DNA from: a virus
Strand: one strand, 5' to 3'
DNA length: 28,521 bases
IMG/VR virus record: IMGVR_UViG_3300030497_000009
The notes below the pieces were generated by a model. That model saw nothing but the letters and a program-made list of their open reading frames with translations. It was not told the DNA's origin and made no database searches. Below, one piece after another: positions 1,933 through 11,962 of this stretch. Numbering within the stretch: the first letter of the stretch is position 1; the number at the start of each line of letters is the position of its first letter. The position numbers and the translations under genes are program-made.

Positions 1933-1947
1933 TCGGAGGTGCTTGAC

Positions 1948-3663
1948 ATGGAATTTGAAAACGGATTTGGAATGGGATCTGGTCAACAGGTTTCTGACCT
2001 TAACAAAGCATTATCAGCTGGTTACGCTACTTCACCTGATACACAAACGAATGGTGGCGCGTTCCGTGTTGAATCATTAGAAAGTTCTTTAAAAGTTTTA
2101 ACTTACTCTGACCAACATATTAAGTTTTGGAAGAAAATTCCAAAGAGCAAAGCTACAAATACTGTTGAAGAGTACAACCAATTAATCAGCTACGGTTCTG
2201 AAGGCGGTGGCTTCTTAACTGAAGGCGAATTACCAGATACTCAAGATTCTACTTACCAACGTAAAGCAAGCTTCGTTAAATTCATGGGTGTTACTCGTGA
2301 AGTAACGCATCCTATGACTTTAGTGAACTCAGCTCACGGTGACGTAGTTTCTCGTATGAACCAAGACGGTATCCTTTGGATGCTTAAGAAAATTGAAAAT
2401 GGTTTATTCTGGGGTGACTCTAAGTTAGGTGCTGGCGGTACTGAGTACGTAGAGTTTGATGGTTTGGATAAATTAATCCATCCTGAAAACACTATCGACT
2501 TAGCTGGTAAACATCTTGAAGAGAAACACATTAACTGGGGTTCTCAAATGATCCTAGAAAACTATGGTATCGCAACTGACTTGTTCTTACCATACGAAGT
2601 ATTTGCTCAATTCCAACAAGAGTTCTTCCCTAAAGAGCGTGTTATCATGCCTACTACTGGTGGAACTAAAGCTGGTGTTGTAGTTGACCAATTCCAATCT
2701 CATGGTGGTCCTATCAACTTCGAGCCTAACTTATTCTTGAAGAAAACAAAAGAAGTTCCGACTCAAGCTACTTCACCAAAAGCTCCTGCTCAACCGGCTT
2801 CAGTAACTGCGGCATTAGGCGCATTAACTAACGCTGAGTTTGCTAAATCAGGTGCTGGTTCTTACACTTACTATGTAACAGCTGCTAACAAACATGGTGA
2901 ATCAACTCCAGTTAAATTAGCAACTCCAATCGCTATCACTGGTGCTGACTTAGCTAAAGGTGTTACGTTAACAGTTCAGAATGCTGCTGCAACAGTATAT
3001 CCAGTTGATTACTTGACTGTTTACCGTACAGAAGCTGATGGAACTCAAGCTTTCCAAATCGCTCGTGTTGCTGTAACTAGTGCAGCTGCAAACGCTCAAA
3101 CTGTCGTAACTGACAAAAATGACACTATGCCTAATACGTATACAGCGTTCATGGGTGAAATGTCAGAGCAGATCCTAGCGTTCAAACAGTTAACTCCTAT
3201 GTTAAAAATGGACTTAGCTACGCTTGCTCCGTCTTACAGATGGATGATCTTAATGTATGGGATAAAAGATTTTTCTAAAATCGAGTGTCCTCTTGTAGCG
3301 TAAGTTACAAGTAATAAAGATGGGAAATTGCTGGAAACTCTGAGTATCTCAAGGTAGGATATTACGCAGTAATGACGTAACGACCCCTGAAAATCCGAGA
3401 GTGCAGACAATCAGCAGCCGAGCTTCCTAAGGAAGAAGGTTCAACGACTAAGTGGTTATAAGAGTAATCTTATAATCTGCGCCATCCCCCACGATGTGGG
3501 TGAAGATATAGTCTGACCTCTACAGCGATGTAGAGAGGTAGGCAGAAATGACCTATCCCACTTAGAGCGGTGGTAACAAACTTGGCCAGTACTTTATGCT
3601 CCTAAAAAGTTCTTGCGTTTCAAAAATATCAAAGCTGAATTATACAACGAACCAAGATTCTGA
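1948..3663 (+). CDS. Major capsid protein precursor, intron-split: join(1948..3263,3585..3663), 464 aa
   Basis: Twort/SPO1-like MCP motifs (GYATSPDTQTNGGAFRVESL, LFWGD, EFDGLDKLI). RBS GGAGGT 1935-1940. Removing 3264-3584 joins AT+G and restores the expected C-terminus ...WMILMYG-M-PVLYAPKKFLRFKNIKAELYNEPRF*. Confidence 0.95.
3264..3584 (+). ncRNA. Group I self-splicing intron (321 nt, no internal ORF) in the MCP gene
   Basis: Exon 1 ends in U and the intron ends in G. P1: GGGAU (3259-3263) with IGS GUCCU (3287-3291), U-G wobble. P2 CTTGTAGC-GTAA-GTTACAAG. P AAATTGCTGGAAA 3325-3337; Q AATCAGCAGCC 3409-3419; R GTTCAACGACTA 3439-3450; S AAGATATAGTCT 3503-3514. P3 GATGG/CCATC; P7 GACTA/TAGTC; P7.1 3456-3475; P9 CTCTACA-GCGA-TGTAGAG. 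Confidence 0.95.
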
Positions 3664-3742: not shown

Positions 3743-4438
3743 ATGAACGCAGAATTTGTAGAGTGTCAAATATGTGGAAAGAAAATGAAGTGGATTCAAA
3801 ATAAGCATCTAAGCCAACATGGTATAACTACGAAAGAGTACAAGAAGATGTTTCCTAATCACCCGAACAAGACATCCGACATGCAGAAAAAGATAGAGGA
3901 AACTCGTTGGGGTGAGTACGAAACGATACACCCTAAAATAAAGAAATGTTTTAGGGAAGGTTGTGAAGAGAAGGTAGCTGAGAAAAGTAAATACTGTTCG
4001 TACAGCTGTAGAGCCACTGATAGGGCTAATAGCGACGCTAATCCTTTTAAGAATACAAAGACTAATCCAGCTTTTAAAACTGGTTCATCGAGTAGCTGGA
4101 AGCGTCAAAGAAAGATACGAGCCGAAATGGATAATCACTCGTGCGTCCGGTGTGGTAAAACGGGGCTTGATGGAAAGGCTCACAAGTACAGTGTGCATCA
4201 CATTATACCTAAGAGGTGTTTCACCCTTGACAACTTGGATGACCGCGATGATGTTTTTAATACGATAACTCTTTGCGGTATATGCCACAAGGAAGTTGAG
4301 TCAAGCTCTTTCTGGTTGCTTGTGCGGTTACTTATAGAGAAAGGTGTTTCACGAGAAGAAATCACCGAGTACCTCCGTAATGAGATAGAAACAAACGCTC
4401 CCTTTGAAGCCTTCATTACTAAAAGTACAGAAGAATAG
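3743..4438 (+). CDS. Free-standing HNH homing endonuclease with N-terminal zinc-binding modules
   Basis: C-terminal HNH/McrA-type core CVRCG...SVHHIIP...NTITLCGICHKEVE. N-terminal CQIC...H...H finger and a C-x4-C...YCSYSC module. RBS AGGGGGA 3730-3736. Confidence 0.88.
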   Translation: MNAEFVECQICGKKMKWIQNKHLSQHGITTKEYKKMFPNHPNKTSDMQKKIEETRWGEYETIHPKIKKCFREGCEEKVAEKSKYCSYSCRATDRANSDANPFKNTKTNPAFKTGSSSSWKRQRKIRAEMDNHSCVRCGKTGLDGKAHKYSVHHIIPKRCFTLDNLDDRDDVFNTITLCGICHKEVESSSFWLLVRLLIEKGVSREEITEYLRNEIETNAPFEAFITKSTEE

Positions 4439-6271: not shown

Positions 6272-6999
6272 TGCGTGAGGTACGAATTGATATTCCTAAA
6301 GGCTTCTCTGGTGTATTAGCTTCTCAGTTGGAGAGTGCGGCACAGGCTGCTGTCTCTTCAACCTTGATGGCTAGTAAATCGAAGTGGGAGCAAACGGTTC
6401 AGCAACGGTTAACAACTACCCGTGCTGACTACTTGCTAGGCTTGAACGCTGACAACTCGATGGAGTTTCCTGACTCGTTTACTGGTATCTTGACGCTACG
6501 TGGTAAATGGGCTAACATGCTAGAGTCTGGCTTCCCTGCTTACGATATGAAGACCAACTTCGAAAATAGTAAGCGTGTGAAATATAACGCTGAAGGTGGT
6601 TGGTATTTAACGATTCCGTTTAGACAGCGAACTCCGGGAACGTCTGGTTCAGGTGTCGGTGGTTCGGCTATGCCTGACGATATATACGCACAAGCGCGTA
6701 AGCTACGAGGTGGAACGCGATTAACTGGTACAGAAACTCAGTACCCTGCGCAAACATCTTGGACGGGCTACCAACATAAGTCAGGTATTTATGAAGGCAT
6801 TAAGAAGGTAACGAAGAAATATGACAACGCTACCCAAAACCAGTATATGAGCTTTAGACGTGTGGGGCAGAACTCTGATCCTCAGTCTTGGTGGCATCCT
6901 GGCTTTCCTGGGATTAAAGCGATTGACGTGGTTGAGCCTTATGCAAAATCTACGTTTGAGAAAGTTTTTAAAAAGTATCTTAATGACGCTATGGGGTGA
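6271..6999 (+). CDS. Conserved virion morphogenesis protein (head-tail region)
   Basis: 242-aa ORF coupled to its neighbours; GGWYLTIPF and FRRV...SDPQSWWHP motifs recalled from Twort-like structural modules. Confidence 0.65.
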   Translation: MREVRIDIPKGFSGVLASQLESAAQAAVSSTLMASKSKWEQTVQQRLTTTRADYLLGLNADNSMEFPDSFTGILTLRGKWANMLESGFPAYDMKTNFENSKRVKYNAEGGWYLTIPFRQRTPGTSGSGVGGSAMPDDIYAQARKLRGGTRLTGTETQYPAQTSWTGYQHKSGIYEGIKKVTKKYDNATQNQYMSFRRVGQNSDPQSWWHPGFPGIKAIDVVEPYAKSTFEKVFKKYLNDAMG

Positions 7000-7004
7000 A
7001 TTTA

Positions 7005-7823
7005 GTGATACCTGTAATTGAAAATGTGCTGTCCGAGATAATTGTATCACGATTAAAAGTTATAAAAGCCAACCCAGATATTGTAGATAGACTGTTCAGC
7101 CATATAACAACAACACTTAGAAGCCGTTTAAAAGAATACCTCAAGAGTGATGCAGTCACGGTTATCCGTGGCTTTCCAACGGAACGTGCGAAGCTACCCT
7201 GTTATGCTATCATGCTAGGTGGCGAGCGCGAGCAAGAGAAATTCTTGGGTGATATGTCTGACGACTTCTCTGATGATGTCGAGTTGATTTCTGTTACAGA
7301 GCAGGTGGAAGTGAAGTACAAAAACGGGAAACCGACGATTGAGCTTCAGCATAAGCCGTTAAGCGCTGTGACGTCAATTCTGTTAGATGGTGAAGAAGTA
7401 TTGCCGACTGAAGTTGTAAGTGCGAATCGTTCTATTTTAGCGTTTGATGAAGAAGATGTTCAGCGAGGTTCAAAGCTAGACGTTGAGTATGTCTATAAAA
7501 AGTCTGGTACTGAAGTTTTCGGTACACTGTTCAATACGCAGTATCGTATTGAGACTTGGACGAATAATGGCGACTTGACTGTGCTACTTTACCACCTGTT
7601 AAAATACATCATTCTTTCTTCACGCTTAGAGCTAGCTGACAAGTACAACTTAAATGTCCAAAGTCTTGGTGGGTTAGACTTCGAACCAGCTCCTGAGTAC
7701 ATGCCTGAGTTTGTTTATCGTAGAGCGTTAACGTTTGAGTGCGTAATTGAAAACTCCTATGAAAACGCCTTTGATTACATTCAAGGTATCGAAGTAGACT
7801 GGAAATTGGAAGGAGATAGCTAA
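7005..7823 (+). CDS. Putative tail terminator / tail completion protein
   Basis: Two genes upstream of the sheath, the usual position. GGGGTG (6993-6998) supports GTG 7005 (MIPVIE...); 6996 is the alternative start. Confidence 0.6.
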   Translation: MIPVIENVLSEIIVSRLKVIKANPDIVDRLFSHITTTLRSRLKEYLKSDAVTVIRGFPTERAKLPCYAIMLGGEREQEKFLGDMSDDFSDDVELISVTEQVEVKYKNGKPTIELQHKPLSAVTSILLDGEEVLPTEVVSANRSILAFDEEDVQRGSKLDVEYVYKKSGTEVFGTLFNTQYRIETWTNNGDLTVLLYHLLKYIILSSRLELADKYNLNVQSLGGLDFEPAPEYMPEFVYRRALTFECVIENSYENAFDYIQGIEVDWKLEGDS

Positions 7824-8028: not shown

Positions 8029-9741
8029 ATGGCTAGAAACATTGGTGTTAACTTTAATGGTAAACGTATCGTTAGACCAGGAGCGCATAGTCGTATCGAT
8101 TCACAGGGGCTTGGAGCTTTTGGTTCAAGTTCTGAGAAAAAGCTAATTCTCTTGGGTTCATCACAAGGTGGAGAGCCGAATAAGTATCACTCTTTCACGA
8201 ACTATTCTGAAGCGCGTAACACACTTCGTGGTGGTAACTTACTTAAAGCAGCTGAGCTTGCTTGGGCGCCATCTGGTGACGGAGTAGGTGCTGGTGAAAT
8301 CGGTTTCGTTCGTGTTGAAGAAGCAACACAAGGTGTGCTAGACAAAGCTGGATTCAAGTTAACTTCTAAGCTTTACGGCTCTGAAGCGAATAAAATCCAA
8401 GCGAAGTTAGAAGACGGATCAATTGCTGGCTCTAAAAAGCTGACAGTTTATTTCTGGACTGACAACGCTCGTGAGATTTATGACCAACTTGGTCCTGTGT
8501 TCAACTTTAAGTATACGGGCGCTGACGCGTATGCTGGGTTAACTATCCAAGCTGATGCTAACGGTAAAGCTGAGAAGTTCATCGTTAAGACAGGTGCGGA
8601 TAAAGCGACAGCGACTGAACTTGTTGCTTATGACTTAGGGGCTACTGCTGAGTTCAAAGAAGTTAATAAGTTAATCAACGAAATTGGTTCTCACCCAGAG
8701 CTATCTGCTTCTGTTACACTAGCTGGTAACAAAACGCTTGATACAGATGTATTAGATGCTGTGGCTGACCAAGATATTAAAACTCCGTTCATCGTAACTG
8801 CTTTAAAAGGTGACATTGAGAGCCAGCTTGCTTACTCTCGTTTGGTAACTGTGGCGGTTAAAGACGGTGAAGTTGAAAACTTTGAATCCGAGTATTTAAC
8901 TGGTGGTTCAAACGGTTCTGTACCTGCTTCTTGGGCTGACAAGCTTGACTTAGTTTCAGGTGAAGGCGGTTACATTATCGTTCCGTTAACAGCTGACGAA
9001 GCGATTCATGCTGAAGTAGCTCGTTATGTTGAGTCTCAATCGAATAACGAGAAAAACGAAATGCGTGCATTCTACGGTGGTGGAATGGGTGAAACAGTTG
9101 ACCAAGCGATTAACCGTGCTGTAACGTTAAATAGCCATCGTGCTGTTCAATGCTACCCTGCGATTACACGTAAGGCTGCTGACAACACTACAGAATCATT
9201 ACCAGCTTATTTCACAGCTGCACTAGTCGCTGGACGTTCTGCTGGAGTACCTGTTGCTGAGCCTGTAACGTTTGACTATCTAAACCTTATTGGGGTTGAG
9301 AAAGTTCTTTCTTCAGGTGAAATCGACAAGTTACTTGAAAATGGTGTAACGCCTATCGAGTACGTGCGTACACGTAACCGTAAAGGCTTCCGTGTAGCTC
9401 AATGTGTGACGACTTACCAAGATGATAACAACCCATCTTACCGTGAGAACTCTATCAGCGAGTTAATGGACTTCTTGAATATCGAATTACGTGAACACTT
9501 AGAGTCTCGCTTTGTGGGAACTAAGGGTACTGCTGTGACTGGCGCATTAATTAAGAATGAGGTTCAATCGTTCTTAGACCAAAAAGTGCGTGAAGAGTGG
9601 CTAGTAGAATACGATCCTGAAAGCGTTGTTGTGTTAGACGGTGAAGTTGTAGAAGTAAGCTATGCGGCAATGCCTGTTACTAGCGTTAACTACATCTTAA
9701 TCACTGGTTCGTTCTACCGTTCAGCGTTAACAGCATCTTAA
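8029..9741 (+). CDS. Contractile tail sheath protein
   Basis: 570 aa; RPGAHSRID...SEK.L.LGS.QGGEPN, LRGGNLLKAAELAW and a C-terminal sheath domain (E..DFL..ELR..LE..FVG). RBS GGAGGT. Confidence 0.95.
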   Translation: MARNIGVNFNGKRIVRPGAHSRIDSQGLGAFGSSSEKKLILLGSSQGGEPNKYHSFTNYSEARNTLRGGNLLKAAELAWAPSGDGVGAGEIGFVRVEEATQGVLDKAGFKLTSKLYGSEANKIQAKLEDGSIAGSKKLTVYFWTDNAREIYDQLGPVFNFKYTGADAYAGLTIQADANGKAEKFIVKTGADKATATELVAYDLGATAEFKEVNKLINEIGSHPELSASVTLAGNKTLDTDVLDAVADQDIKTPFIVTALKGDIESQLAYSRLVTVAVKDGEVENFESEYLTGGSNGSVPASWADKLDLVSGEGGYIIVPLTADEAIHAEVARYVESQSNNEKNEMRAFYGGGMGETVDQAINRAVTLNSHRAVQCYPAITRKAADNTTESLPAYFTAALVAGRSAGVPVAEPVTFDYLNLIGVEKVLSSGEIDKLLENGVTPIEYVRTRNRKGFRVAQCVTTYQDDNNPSYRENSISELMDFLNIELREHLESRFVGTKGTAVTGALIKNEVQSFLDQKVREEWLVEYDPESVVVLDGEVVEVSYAAMPVTSVNYILITGSFYRSALTAS

Positions 9742-9759
9742 TAAGGAGGTTGATGGGCT

Positions 9760-10230
9760 ATGAAGAATCGAAATAAAATGCTATTAAAGCTTGACTTACA
9801 ATTCTTCGCTACGCAAGAGAAACAGACTGTTCACTCAGGTTCTACGATTCTCTTGATGATTGGGAATAAAGTAGTAGGGCGTGCGCAAGGTATTGACGCG
9901 CGTCGTTCTTTCGGTACTGAGCCGGTTATGGAAATCGGTTCTATCATGCCGCAAGAGCACGTGTACAACCGTTACGAAGGTTCCGTTTCTATTGAACGGT
10001 TCTTCGTTAAGAAAGACAACCTTGCTCAATTAGGCTTCGCTTCACTAGGTGAAGAAGTCTTAAAGCAAGATGTTATCGACATTGTGGTTGTAGACAAAGC
10101 AACGAAGTCTGTTATCCGAGCTTATCGTGGATGCTCAATCCAAGACTACTCTGAGAACTTCCGAGCTAATACCATTTCAGGTGAGAATGCTAGCTTTGTT
10201 TACCTCAAAGCAAGTGACACTACAAATTAA
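9760..10230 (+). CDS. Tail tube protein with a 16-aa N-terminal extension ending in a Prp-type motif
   Basis: KQTVHSG...IGNKVVGRAQ...RSFGTEPVMEIGSIMPQEHVYNRYEGS is typical of Twort-like tube proteins; directly after the sheath. RBS AAGGAGGT 9743-9750. Confidence 0.93.
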   Translation: MKNRNKMLLKLDLQFFATQEKQTVHSGSTILLMIGNKVVGRAQGIDARRSFGTEPVMEIGSIMPQEHVYNRYEGSVSIERFFVKKDNLAQLGFASLGEEVLKQDVIDIVVVDKATKSVIRAYRGCSIQDYSENFRANTISGENASFVYLKASDTTN

Positions 10231-10261: not shown

Positions 10262-10312
10262 GTACATTAACTGTAAACCTTCTAAGGGGGAGTGCAGTTA
10301 ATGTACTTTTTT
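10262..10312 (+). promoter_or_regulatory. Terminator-like hairpin enclosing the RBS and start codon(s) of the GIY-YIG gene
   Basis: GTACATTAACTGTA (10262-10275) pairs with TGCAGTTAATGTAC (10293-10306), 14 bp with one G-U. An inner CCTTC/GGGGG stem covers the RBS. TTTTTT follows at 10307-10312. Confidence 0.8.
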
Positions 10313-11074
10313 GTTTCAGGAATTTATCAGATTAGGAATGAAGTTAACGGGAAAGTTTACATCGGTAGCTCTTTGCTGGTTGCTAGTCGGTTAAAAGGAC
10401 ATAAAGGTCAACTTAAAAGAAACAAACATCACAACATAAAGCTTCAAAACGCTTGGAATAAATACGGTGCGGAAAACTTTACATTCACGCTGTTAGAAGA
10501 ATGTGCGGAGGAAAGATTAATTGAACTTGAACAGGAGTACATGGATAAATTTGACTCGATCCGAAATGGGTACAACATACGTGAAGCTGGGTCAATTGGT
10601 AGACACTCACCTGAAACAAAAGAGAAACTTCGAATAGTGAACCTCAACAGACCAAAGGAAATAAACGAACGAATCTCAAAGTCAAAGATGGGTCACAGCG
10701 TTTCTCCGGAAGCTCGACGTAAAATTGGTGACGCACAAATTGGAAATAGAAACCGTGAAGGAAAAACGTTTACTGAGGAGAGCAAGAAAAAGATGTCAGA
10801 TGCGCTTCGCGGAAGAAAAATATCAGAAGAGGTTCGACAAAAGATAGTTAATTCCCTCATTGGAAACACAAGAGCAAAGGGCAGAAAGCTCTCCGAAGAA
10901 CACAAACGAAAGATAAGCGAAAGCTTAAACAAGATTGATAAAGCCGAGGTTAACAAACGTCGTTCCGAATCACTACGAGGGCGTAAGCAGTCTGAGGAGA
11001 CAAAACGAAAGATAGCAGAAGCAATGAAAGGCAAGAAAAATGCCAAGAAAAGACCGGATAAGGAAGCAAATTAA
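10301..11074 (+). CDS. Free-standing GIY-YIG homing endonuclease with NUMOD3-type repeats
   Basis: SGIYQIRNEVNGKVYIGSS, conserved R, E (LEQEY) and GYN. C-terminal repeats HSPETKEKL, VSPEARRKI, FTEESKKKM, ISEEVRQKI, LSEEHKRKI, QSEETKRKI. ATG 10301 fits RBS AAGGGGGAG; GTG 10292 is the alternative. Confidence 0.92.
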   Translation: MYFFVSGIYQIRNEVNGKVYIGSSLLVASRLKGHKGQLKRNKHHNIKLQNAWNKYGAENFTFTLLEECAEERLIELEQEYMDKFDSIRNGYNIREAGSIGRHSPETKEKLRIVNLNRPKEINERISKSKMGHSVSPEARRKIGDAQIGNRNREGKTFTEESKKKMSDALRGRKISEEVRQKIVNSLIGNTRAKGRKLSEEHKRKISESLNKIDKAEVNKRRSESLRGRKQSEETKRKIAEAMKGKKNAKKRPDKEAN

Positions 11075-11178: not shown

Positions 11179-11577
11179 ATGGAAAACCAAGCTCGTGAAC
11201 TAGGTCAAGGAATTATTCAAGGAACTAATCGTAAACACGAAAAGCATTTCAACTTCTCAGAGTATGACGCTCGTTTCGTTGGAACGTTTGTGTACAAACA
11301 CCCTTCTGTTTTAGACCGTATGCAAATTGGTATTAATAAAGCGAAGATGTTACAAGGTTTACAAGGACAAACAGACGTTTTAACTGATAACATTGCCCAC
11401 ATGGCGGCAACTCTTGGAGTTGTTTTAACGAAGTTTCCAGAGTGGTTTAACCTTGCGGACGTTAGCGAATATGAAATCTTAGAACAGGTGTATGATGAGT
11501 ACACGGGGTGGGTAAACTCCTTTCGAAAGCCTACTAACGCCAACGATGATGCAGGAAATAGTCAAGGAGCCCAGTAA
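11179..11577 (+). CDS. Tail assembly chaperone (short, gpG-like form)
   Basis: Between tube and tape measure; RBS AGGAGG; overlaps the next ORF, which is in the +1 frame. Confidence 0.82.
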   Translation: MENQARELGQGIIQGTNRKHEKHFNFSEYDARFVGTFVYKHPSVLDRMQIGINKAKMLQGLQGQTDVLTDNIAHMAATLGVVLTKFPEWFNLADVSEYEILEQVYDEYTGWVNSFRKPTNANDDAGNSQGAQ

Positions 11578-11962
11578 CAGATTTGATTACTGGATAATGA
11601 AGGAGTGGAGGGTTTTACCAACCTCTCCGGAGTTTCAAAACTTAACAGCTGACCAGAAAGAGTTCCTATGGGAAAACTTTTTACTGGATAATCCAGAAAT
11701 CTCGAAACGCCTTGCGAATCGCTTTGTGGATGAAGACTTCGATAAGGAATTTGAGAAGGCTGAGAAGGTAGCTGTAGAAGCGCAGAACACTTTCGAAGGT
11801 AAAACTGACCAAGACGAAATTGAAGCGATAGAAGAGAGCTACAGCCGTTTTACGGAACAGGACGGTGACTTGCCTGACTATCGTGAGATTTTAAAAGCAA
11901 AAGGTATTGTTTTGGACAACGAACAGCTAGAAGATGTTGATGATTGGGAGGAGGTGGACTAG
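11525..11962 (+). CDS. Tail assembly chaperone C-terminal part (gpT-like), probably expressed by +1 frameshift as a ~260-aa fusion
   Basis: The +1 frame opens after TAA 11513-11515; there is no SD before ATG 11546; TCC TTT CGA lies at 11518-11526. WIMKEWRVLPT motif. Confidence 0.75.
   Translation, partial: ESLLTPTMMQEIVKEPSNRFDYWIMKEWRVLPTSPEFQNLTADQKEFLWENFLLDNPEISKRLANRFVDEDFDKEFEKAEKVAVEAQNTFEGKTDQDEIEAIEESYSRFTEQDGDLPDYREILKAKGIVLDNEQLEDVDDWEEVD

Follow-up and report, generated by a model that had tools for sequence, protein, structure and literature searches.

The contractile tail tube protein encoded in a 28,521 nt stretch of viral DNA (IMG/VR record IMGVR_UViG_3300030497_000009; "the window" means this whole stretch) starts with a 16-residue leader that ends in a recognition motif of Prp, the protease linked to the N-terminal extension of ribosomal protein L27 in Firmicutes. 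Judged by its sequence, this leader is very probably cleaved by the Prp of the host. We lean towards a reading in which the leader is an optional extension taken off by host Prp, its removal being probably needed where it is present, rather than a switch at the core of tail assembly.

The tube gene and its surroundings

The window comes from a Herelleviridae-like myophage and covers its module from head to baseplate, with genes for head protease, scaffold, capsid, sheath, tube, chaperones and tape measure. The features used below are:

374–1135, + strand: phage-encoded head maturation protease (phrog_1028, E 1e-115)
1135–1932: scaffold, without Prp tag (motif scan of the window)
6996–7823, + strand: probable tail terminator, assigned by synteny (phrog_1000; the syntenic genes of relatives match PF23932 SP10_terminator)
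8029–9741, + strand: tail sheath gene, without leader (phrog_279, E 5e-108)
9743–9749, + strand: Shine-Dalgarno sequence AAGGAGG of the tube gene, 10 nt upstream of the ATG (from the sequence)
9760–10230, + strand: tube ORF including the leader, 156 aa, ATG at 9760
9760–9807, + strand: 16-residue leader (pro-peptide), with a length ahead of the motif that is free in homologues
9784–9810, + strand: Prp recognition motif, P8–P1' LKLDLQFF|A (invariant positions, match to the L27 motif, model in the Prp cleft)
9808–10230, + strand: mature contractile tail tube protein, 140 aa plus stop (PF26461 Phi812_tail_tube / phrog_985)

Because a sheath gene is present, with its stop codon at 9739–9741, the tail is contractile. 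The original prediction had described a strong ribosome binding site and the lack of a methionine at the mature boundary, and both are found: AAGGAGG precedes the gene, and an alternative start at the mature boundary was discarded, as there is no ATG, GTG or TTG in frame there. The second in-frame methionine of the ORF is residue 7 (9778); it has no Shine-Dalgarno sequence of its own, and initiation there would merely cut the leader to 10 residues. In the relatives L002, L006, L007 and L013 the Shine-Dalgarno sequence is located immediately 5' of the leader methionine. An assembly error as the source of the leader was also rejected, since the same leader occurs in independent contigs.

LKLDLQFF forms residues 9–16 of the tube protein (9784–9807). 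As the codon of Ala17 is at 9808–9810, the predicted scissile F|A bond falls at 9807/9808. In a phmmer comparison with the tube of phage 812/K (E 6e-49) residues 17–154 of the query align to residues 2–139 of the chain, and Ala17 corresponds to Ala2 of the solved phage 812 tube. Thus, the F/A bond stands in exact register with the mature N-terminus, as had been claimed. The Twort-like tube start given in the original prediction for this comparison is present in L068, and the leader given there for B. subtilis L27 is the one in Table 2 of PMC9405229. The top Foldseek match is 8q01 (TM 0.72–0.79), and the identity as a Phi812-type tube (PF26461, Herelleviridae-like) is supported by sequence, fold and the position after the sheath gene.

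Within the six frames of the window the motif is unique, the chance expectation being approximately 7e-4 over all window ORFs and 6e-5 in the first 30 residues; it is not a chance occurrence. In the AlphaFold model of the tube monomer the leader has low confidence (pLDDT 57–67), therefore this model is uninformative with regard to auto-inhibition. A role of the leader as an aid to translation initiation was considered and dropped: the folding energy of the mRNA start region is -7.0 kcal/mol for tagged and -7.0 kcal/mol for untagged genes (p 0.69). Deletion of the leader in silico leads to more mRNA structure (-11.4), which is expected under relaxed selection and is not decisive.

Several further elements were observed in this region. 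The major capsid gene (1939–3663) holds an ORF-less group I intron at 3264–3584 (Rfam RF00028, 68.8 bits), so that the capsid protein comes out truncated in ORF calls. Spliced as predicted, the gene has exactly the C-terminus of the intronless sister contig L020; in Lysinibacillus phage LysYB1 an intron of 86% identity occupies this capsid site. Directly 3' of the capsid gene lies a free-standing HNH endonuclease (3743–4438), which is shared by the intronless L020 (66%), L025 and L087 and is also found beside the LysYB1 intron; this layout suggests a putative collaborative homing of the ORF-less intron. An optional GIY-YIG homing endonuclease (10292–11074) follows 3' of the tube gene and is absent in L020, L021, L024 and contigs from an independent run. 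The overlapping tail-chaperone ORFs (11179–11577 and 11546–11962) match consecutive parts of one profile, phrog_25000, and suggest the usual programmed frameshift.

Conservation and patchy distribution of the motif

Our sample consisted of the best 120 homologue clusters of the tube, with an extension defined by position alone. An N-terminal extension is present in 33 of the 120 clusters and is 8–42 aa long as a whole. All 33 finish with [FILM][DN][LI]QxF|A, precisely at the position of the start methionine in leaderless clusters, and in the 87 leaderless clusters the initiator methionine is located at or adjoining the cleavage position. Gln at P3, Phe at P1 and Ala at P1' are invariant in all extensions; P5 is D or N, P4 is L or I and P6 is hydrophobic, with unconstrained residues upstream of the motif. 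At P2' the window has Thr, and Arg, Ser and Gly occur among the homologues. Several flavours of the motif exist, which vary by clade (LDLQFF, LNLQFF, INLQLF, FDIQRF and LDLQTF). Comparing 11 variants of the locus, the motif codons differ synonymously at every position and the residues are fixed. The motif is conserved at the protein level and under purifying selection.

The leader agrees with the substrate pattern of Prp (C108), [L/M]xx[D/N][L/I]Q[F/L]F|A, with Phe at P1, Gln at P3 and a small residue at P1'. Prp reads P1 Phe, P3 Gln, hydrophobic residues at P4 and P6 and small ones at P1'–P2' (PMC9261936, PMC9405229). The proposal of an L27-type Prp tag is hence well founded, given the match to the L27 core and the Q-x-F|A found in every extension. 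The alignment of homologues that had been suggested along with it gave a divided answer: tag and register were borne out wherever an extension exists, but the leader is absent in 87 of the 120 clusters.

Tagged and untagged tubes are intermixed. A single-clade origin of the leader was rejected with a p-AU of 3e-82 in a 47-row subset picked to include untagged sisters (LG+G4; rooted with a Kayvirus-, a Bastille- and another distant Herelleviridae-like tube). The leader state changes 18 times on a quick tree, where starred branches require no fewer than 8 of the changes, and in pairs of tagged and untagged tubes the mature domains are 88–95% identical. Searching with the leader peptide hit only 4 of the 757 phage records that have a tube match, and the tube matches in genome contigs are mostly leaderless. 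Since close relatives exist without it, the tag looks like an optional add-on that was repeatedly gained or lost and not like an essential assembly switch. Judged by the tube, the closest cultured phages are the Lysinibacillus phages LysYB1/2 (80%) and the Bacillus phages YungSlug (73%), Nachito (71%) and SP10 (70%); four of these phage records are classed as Spounavirinae. The closest cultured phages infect Lysinibacillus and Bacillus, and the DNA of the window occurs in plant and rhizosphere metagenomes.

A tag was also seen on one scaffold. In L117 (contig MTEV01004477.1) the scaffold at 2406–3209 carries LDLQFF|A with the methionine retained right after the Ala, and the tube of this contig is tagged as well. 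It is the only tagged one among approximately 34 distinct related scaffolds, and this uniqueness together with the retained methionine, which looks like a surviving earlier start, suggests that an existing gene can acquire the tag anew at its 5' end. In phage SP10 (L026, 17128–18303) a variable linker in a homologue of the tube initiator contains LDLQFFA near residue 227, which may be either an internal site for Prp or a coincidence; as a second site it was discarded, as it is not conserved in five aligned homologues.

Other tube homologues are of interest in their own right. One clade (P0054–P0112 and P0168) has variable C-terminal extensions of 15–80 residues, rich in Ser, Thr, Ala, Gly and Asn, which differ even inside a 90% cluster; one of these proteins reaches 309 aa. 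Leaderless phi812-type tubes are located within Anaerococcus and Peptoniphilus contigs (L015, L016–L018 on NZ_OCTP01000011.1, and L019), and one contig has three tube copies exactly 62,841 bp apart, either a tandem prophage or an assembly artefact. An 8-kb contig in a "Clostridiaceae" MAG (L014), with a tube N-terminus nearly like that of LysYB1, is probably a mis-binned phage contig.

Cleavage, the protease and the role of the leader

With the PF04327 profile, which detected B. subtilis in the control and which a very divergent Prp could escape, no Prp was found in the complete genomes of the tagged phages LysYB1, YungSlug and Nachito and of a Nachito-like 150.6-kb IMG/VR genome. As these four genomes have no PF04327 match, the tagged relatives would depend on the Prp of their hosts. 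The protease is therefore, with high probability, of host origin, in line with the original prediction. Throughout the whole genomes of LysYB1 and YungSlug the motif is found within a real ORF on the tube only. For the head the phage has its own protease, as had been stated (374–1135), and the six-frame motif scan found no Prp tag on the scaffold or capsid of the window.

That a protease of the phage, or another one that is not Prp, makes the cut, or that there is no cut at all, appears most improbable. The window is only part of a phage genome, which may have a Prp gene elsewhere, and S. pneumoniae does possess a second protease that cuts L27 (10.1101/2025.08.01.668195). However, a phage-encoded Prp is missing from all four complete tagged genomes, the head proteins share a different motif, K-A/S-L, as the probable target of the phage head protease, and the exact register in 33 of 33 extensions favours the predicted cut over no cut.

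Modelled together with residues 1–40 of the tube, the Prp dimer of B. subtilis gave a score of 0.68, compared with 0.01 for the best control; the mark set for such models is reached by 51 of 78 solved pairs and by 2 of 108 mismatched pairs. The runs share at least 85% of the contacts, with a partner pLDDT of 51–53. Residues 7–20 lie in the cleft with Phe16 against Prp residue 34; in S. aureus Prp the catalytic Cys bears this number. As a like complex (7KLD) had already been solved and the result may be memory, the model is taken as likeness only and not as binding.

According to our proposal, the tube would be made as a precursor with a leader mimicking the L27 extension. The host Prp dimer would bind residues ~7–20 and cut F16|A17, which would yield the same Ala-Thr-Gln N-terminus that leaderless relatives get via removal of their methionine. 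Where the tag is present, its removal would probably be required for normal ring stacking and capping. Before cleavage the tag may give a modest advantage, for which folding or solubility of the abundant monomer is the most likely, if tentative, candidate.

On balance we expect removal of the leader to be needed for normal tails, since the N-terminus of the mature tube fits into adjacent parts: the tube N-termini of phage 812 insert into the terminator (PMC12886913) and in T5 a deletion of the pb6 N-terminus abolishes tube formation (PMC8718954). On the other hand, removal may be unneeded, since uncleavable capsid and scaffold proteins of phage 80alpha are viable and assemble normally (PMC5744158). 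Tubes can also carry appendages, as some homologues tolerate 15–80 extra C-terminal residues. An unremoved leader may be harmful, and therefore we think of a passive dependency on Prp rather than of a designed checkpoint.

The original prediction had gone further, with cleavage as a dedicated gate that licenses polymerisation and with the tag as a determinant of host range. A leader that actively blocks tube polymerisation until host Prp cuts, and in this way times assembly and limits the host range, is unlikely in our view. The tube N-terminus is an assembly interface in 812 and T5, Prps are species-selective (that of C. difficile failed on an S. aureus peptide; PMC9261936), and motif flavours are clade-specific, as host tuning would predict. 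However, the leader is lacking in the 87 leaderless clusters, including the sisters with 88–95% identity, it is normally the baseplate that nucleates contractile tubes (PMC6088184), and in 80alpha, the sole tested case, cleavage is dispensable (PMC5744158). YungSlug has LNLQFF and the one Bacillus L27 leader compared, that of B. subtilis, has LDLQFF, which would speak against tuning if the L27 of the YungSlug host reads alike. Leaderless sisters and 80alpha thus argue jointly against both the gate and the host-range claim, and a true host-Prp checkpoint for polymerisation or capping, repeatedly acquired in a group of lytic SPO1/Twort-related myophages, tuned per host and limiting host range, is rather improbable.

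A somewhat less likely case is that of incidental cleavage, with the intact leader as a folding or chaperone handle and an uncleavable tube that would still assemble. In 80alpha a pre-cleaved scaffold fails to give capsids, uncleavable scaffold and capsid proteins are viable, and the authors describe cleavage as being of unclear relevance (PMC5744158); the extension of S. aureus L27 matters both for its presence and for its cleavage (PMC9261936, 10.1101/2025.08.01.668195). Against this, a sheath-enclosed and N-terminally capped tube would offer less room than the lumen of a capsid, and leaderless sisters fold without any leader.

It is very improbable that the benefit is directed at the host, the highly expressed tagged tube tying up Prp as a competing substrate and slowing ribosome maturation, or the leader hiding the monomer from DSR2-type sensing. 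Prp that has lost its catalytic activity acts in a dominant-negative way and cleavage of L27 is essential (10.1101/2025.08.01.668195), and the patchy gain and loss would fit a trait under host conflict. Bacillus DSR2 senses tail tube protein (PMC10981675, PMC11087589), but the tube used in the work on DSR2 was that of siphophage SPR. Moreover, a tag that can be cut off makes a poor inhibitor, and cutting leaves a product no different from the tube of leaderless phages.

For the preferred reading of an optional, host-removed leader, the near-identical tubes with and without tag form a natural experiment. Cultured tagged phages (LysYB1/2, YungSlug and Nachito) are available alongside cultured untagged ones (SP10, SBSphiC and Goe26) on tractable hosts. 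The reason for a removable extension on L27 and several phage proteins has been called a mystery (10.1101/2025.08.01.668195). Should cleavage be required, this would be an unrecognised host dependency of lytic phages, and Prp inhibitors, which are pursued as antibiotics, would interfere with tagged phages. With regard to annotation, the virion tube protein should begin at Ala17.

Comparison with known Prp substrates and tail tubes

In phage 80alpha, scaffold gp46 and capsid gp47 resemble the window tube in bearing an L27-like F|A leader on a structural protein, and both are cut by host Prp (Kizziah et al. 2017, PMC5744158, and Wall et al. 2015 as cited there). Like the four complete tagged relatives of our phage, 80alpha has no Prp of its own and a variable length upstream of the motif. 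The substrate in our case, by contrast, is the contractile tube of a lytic Herelleviridae-like phage of the ~145-kb class, known from its sequence. Whereas scaffold and capsid are tagged in 80alpha, both are untagged in the window, where only the tube has the tag and the head has its own protease.

The long L27 and FlhB leaders of Firmicutes (MEROPS C108), for which cleavage by Prp is established or proposed, share the same P8–P1' pattern (PMC9405229, PMC9261936). Compared with LRLDLQFF|A of B. subtilis L27, the window core differs only at P7, with K for R. Downstream, the window differs from these leaders by continuing with tube residues and by having Thr instead of Ser or His at P2'. The tubes of phage 812/K (8q01, 8r5g) and SP10 have the same fold and mature N-terminus, at 58% (812) and 70% (SP10) identity, but they start with Met-Ala and need no protease past the removal of the methionine.

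Phage phi13 is a temperate siphophage with a non-contractile tail; the window tube, in contrast, lies inside a sheath and is a member of the phi812 tube family. The major tail protein of phi13 resembles the window tube in that both are tail tube proteins with an N-terminal Prp motif, and the authors proposed in 2017 that Prp associates with ribosomes, procapsids and tails (PMC5744158). This was the only literature found on the motif or on Prp in connection with tails. The novelty originally claimed is thereby narrowed, as the motif had been noted on a major tail protein in 2017, and it stands for the contractile tube: no description of a Prp motif on such a tube or in Herelleviridae was found in the searchable literature, the coverage of which is incomplete. 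New here is a tag confined to the tube in lytic phages with contractile tails, which apparently depend on the Prp of their host.
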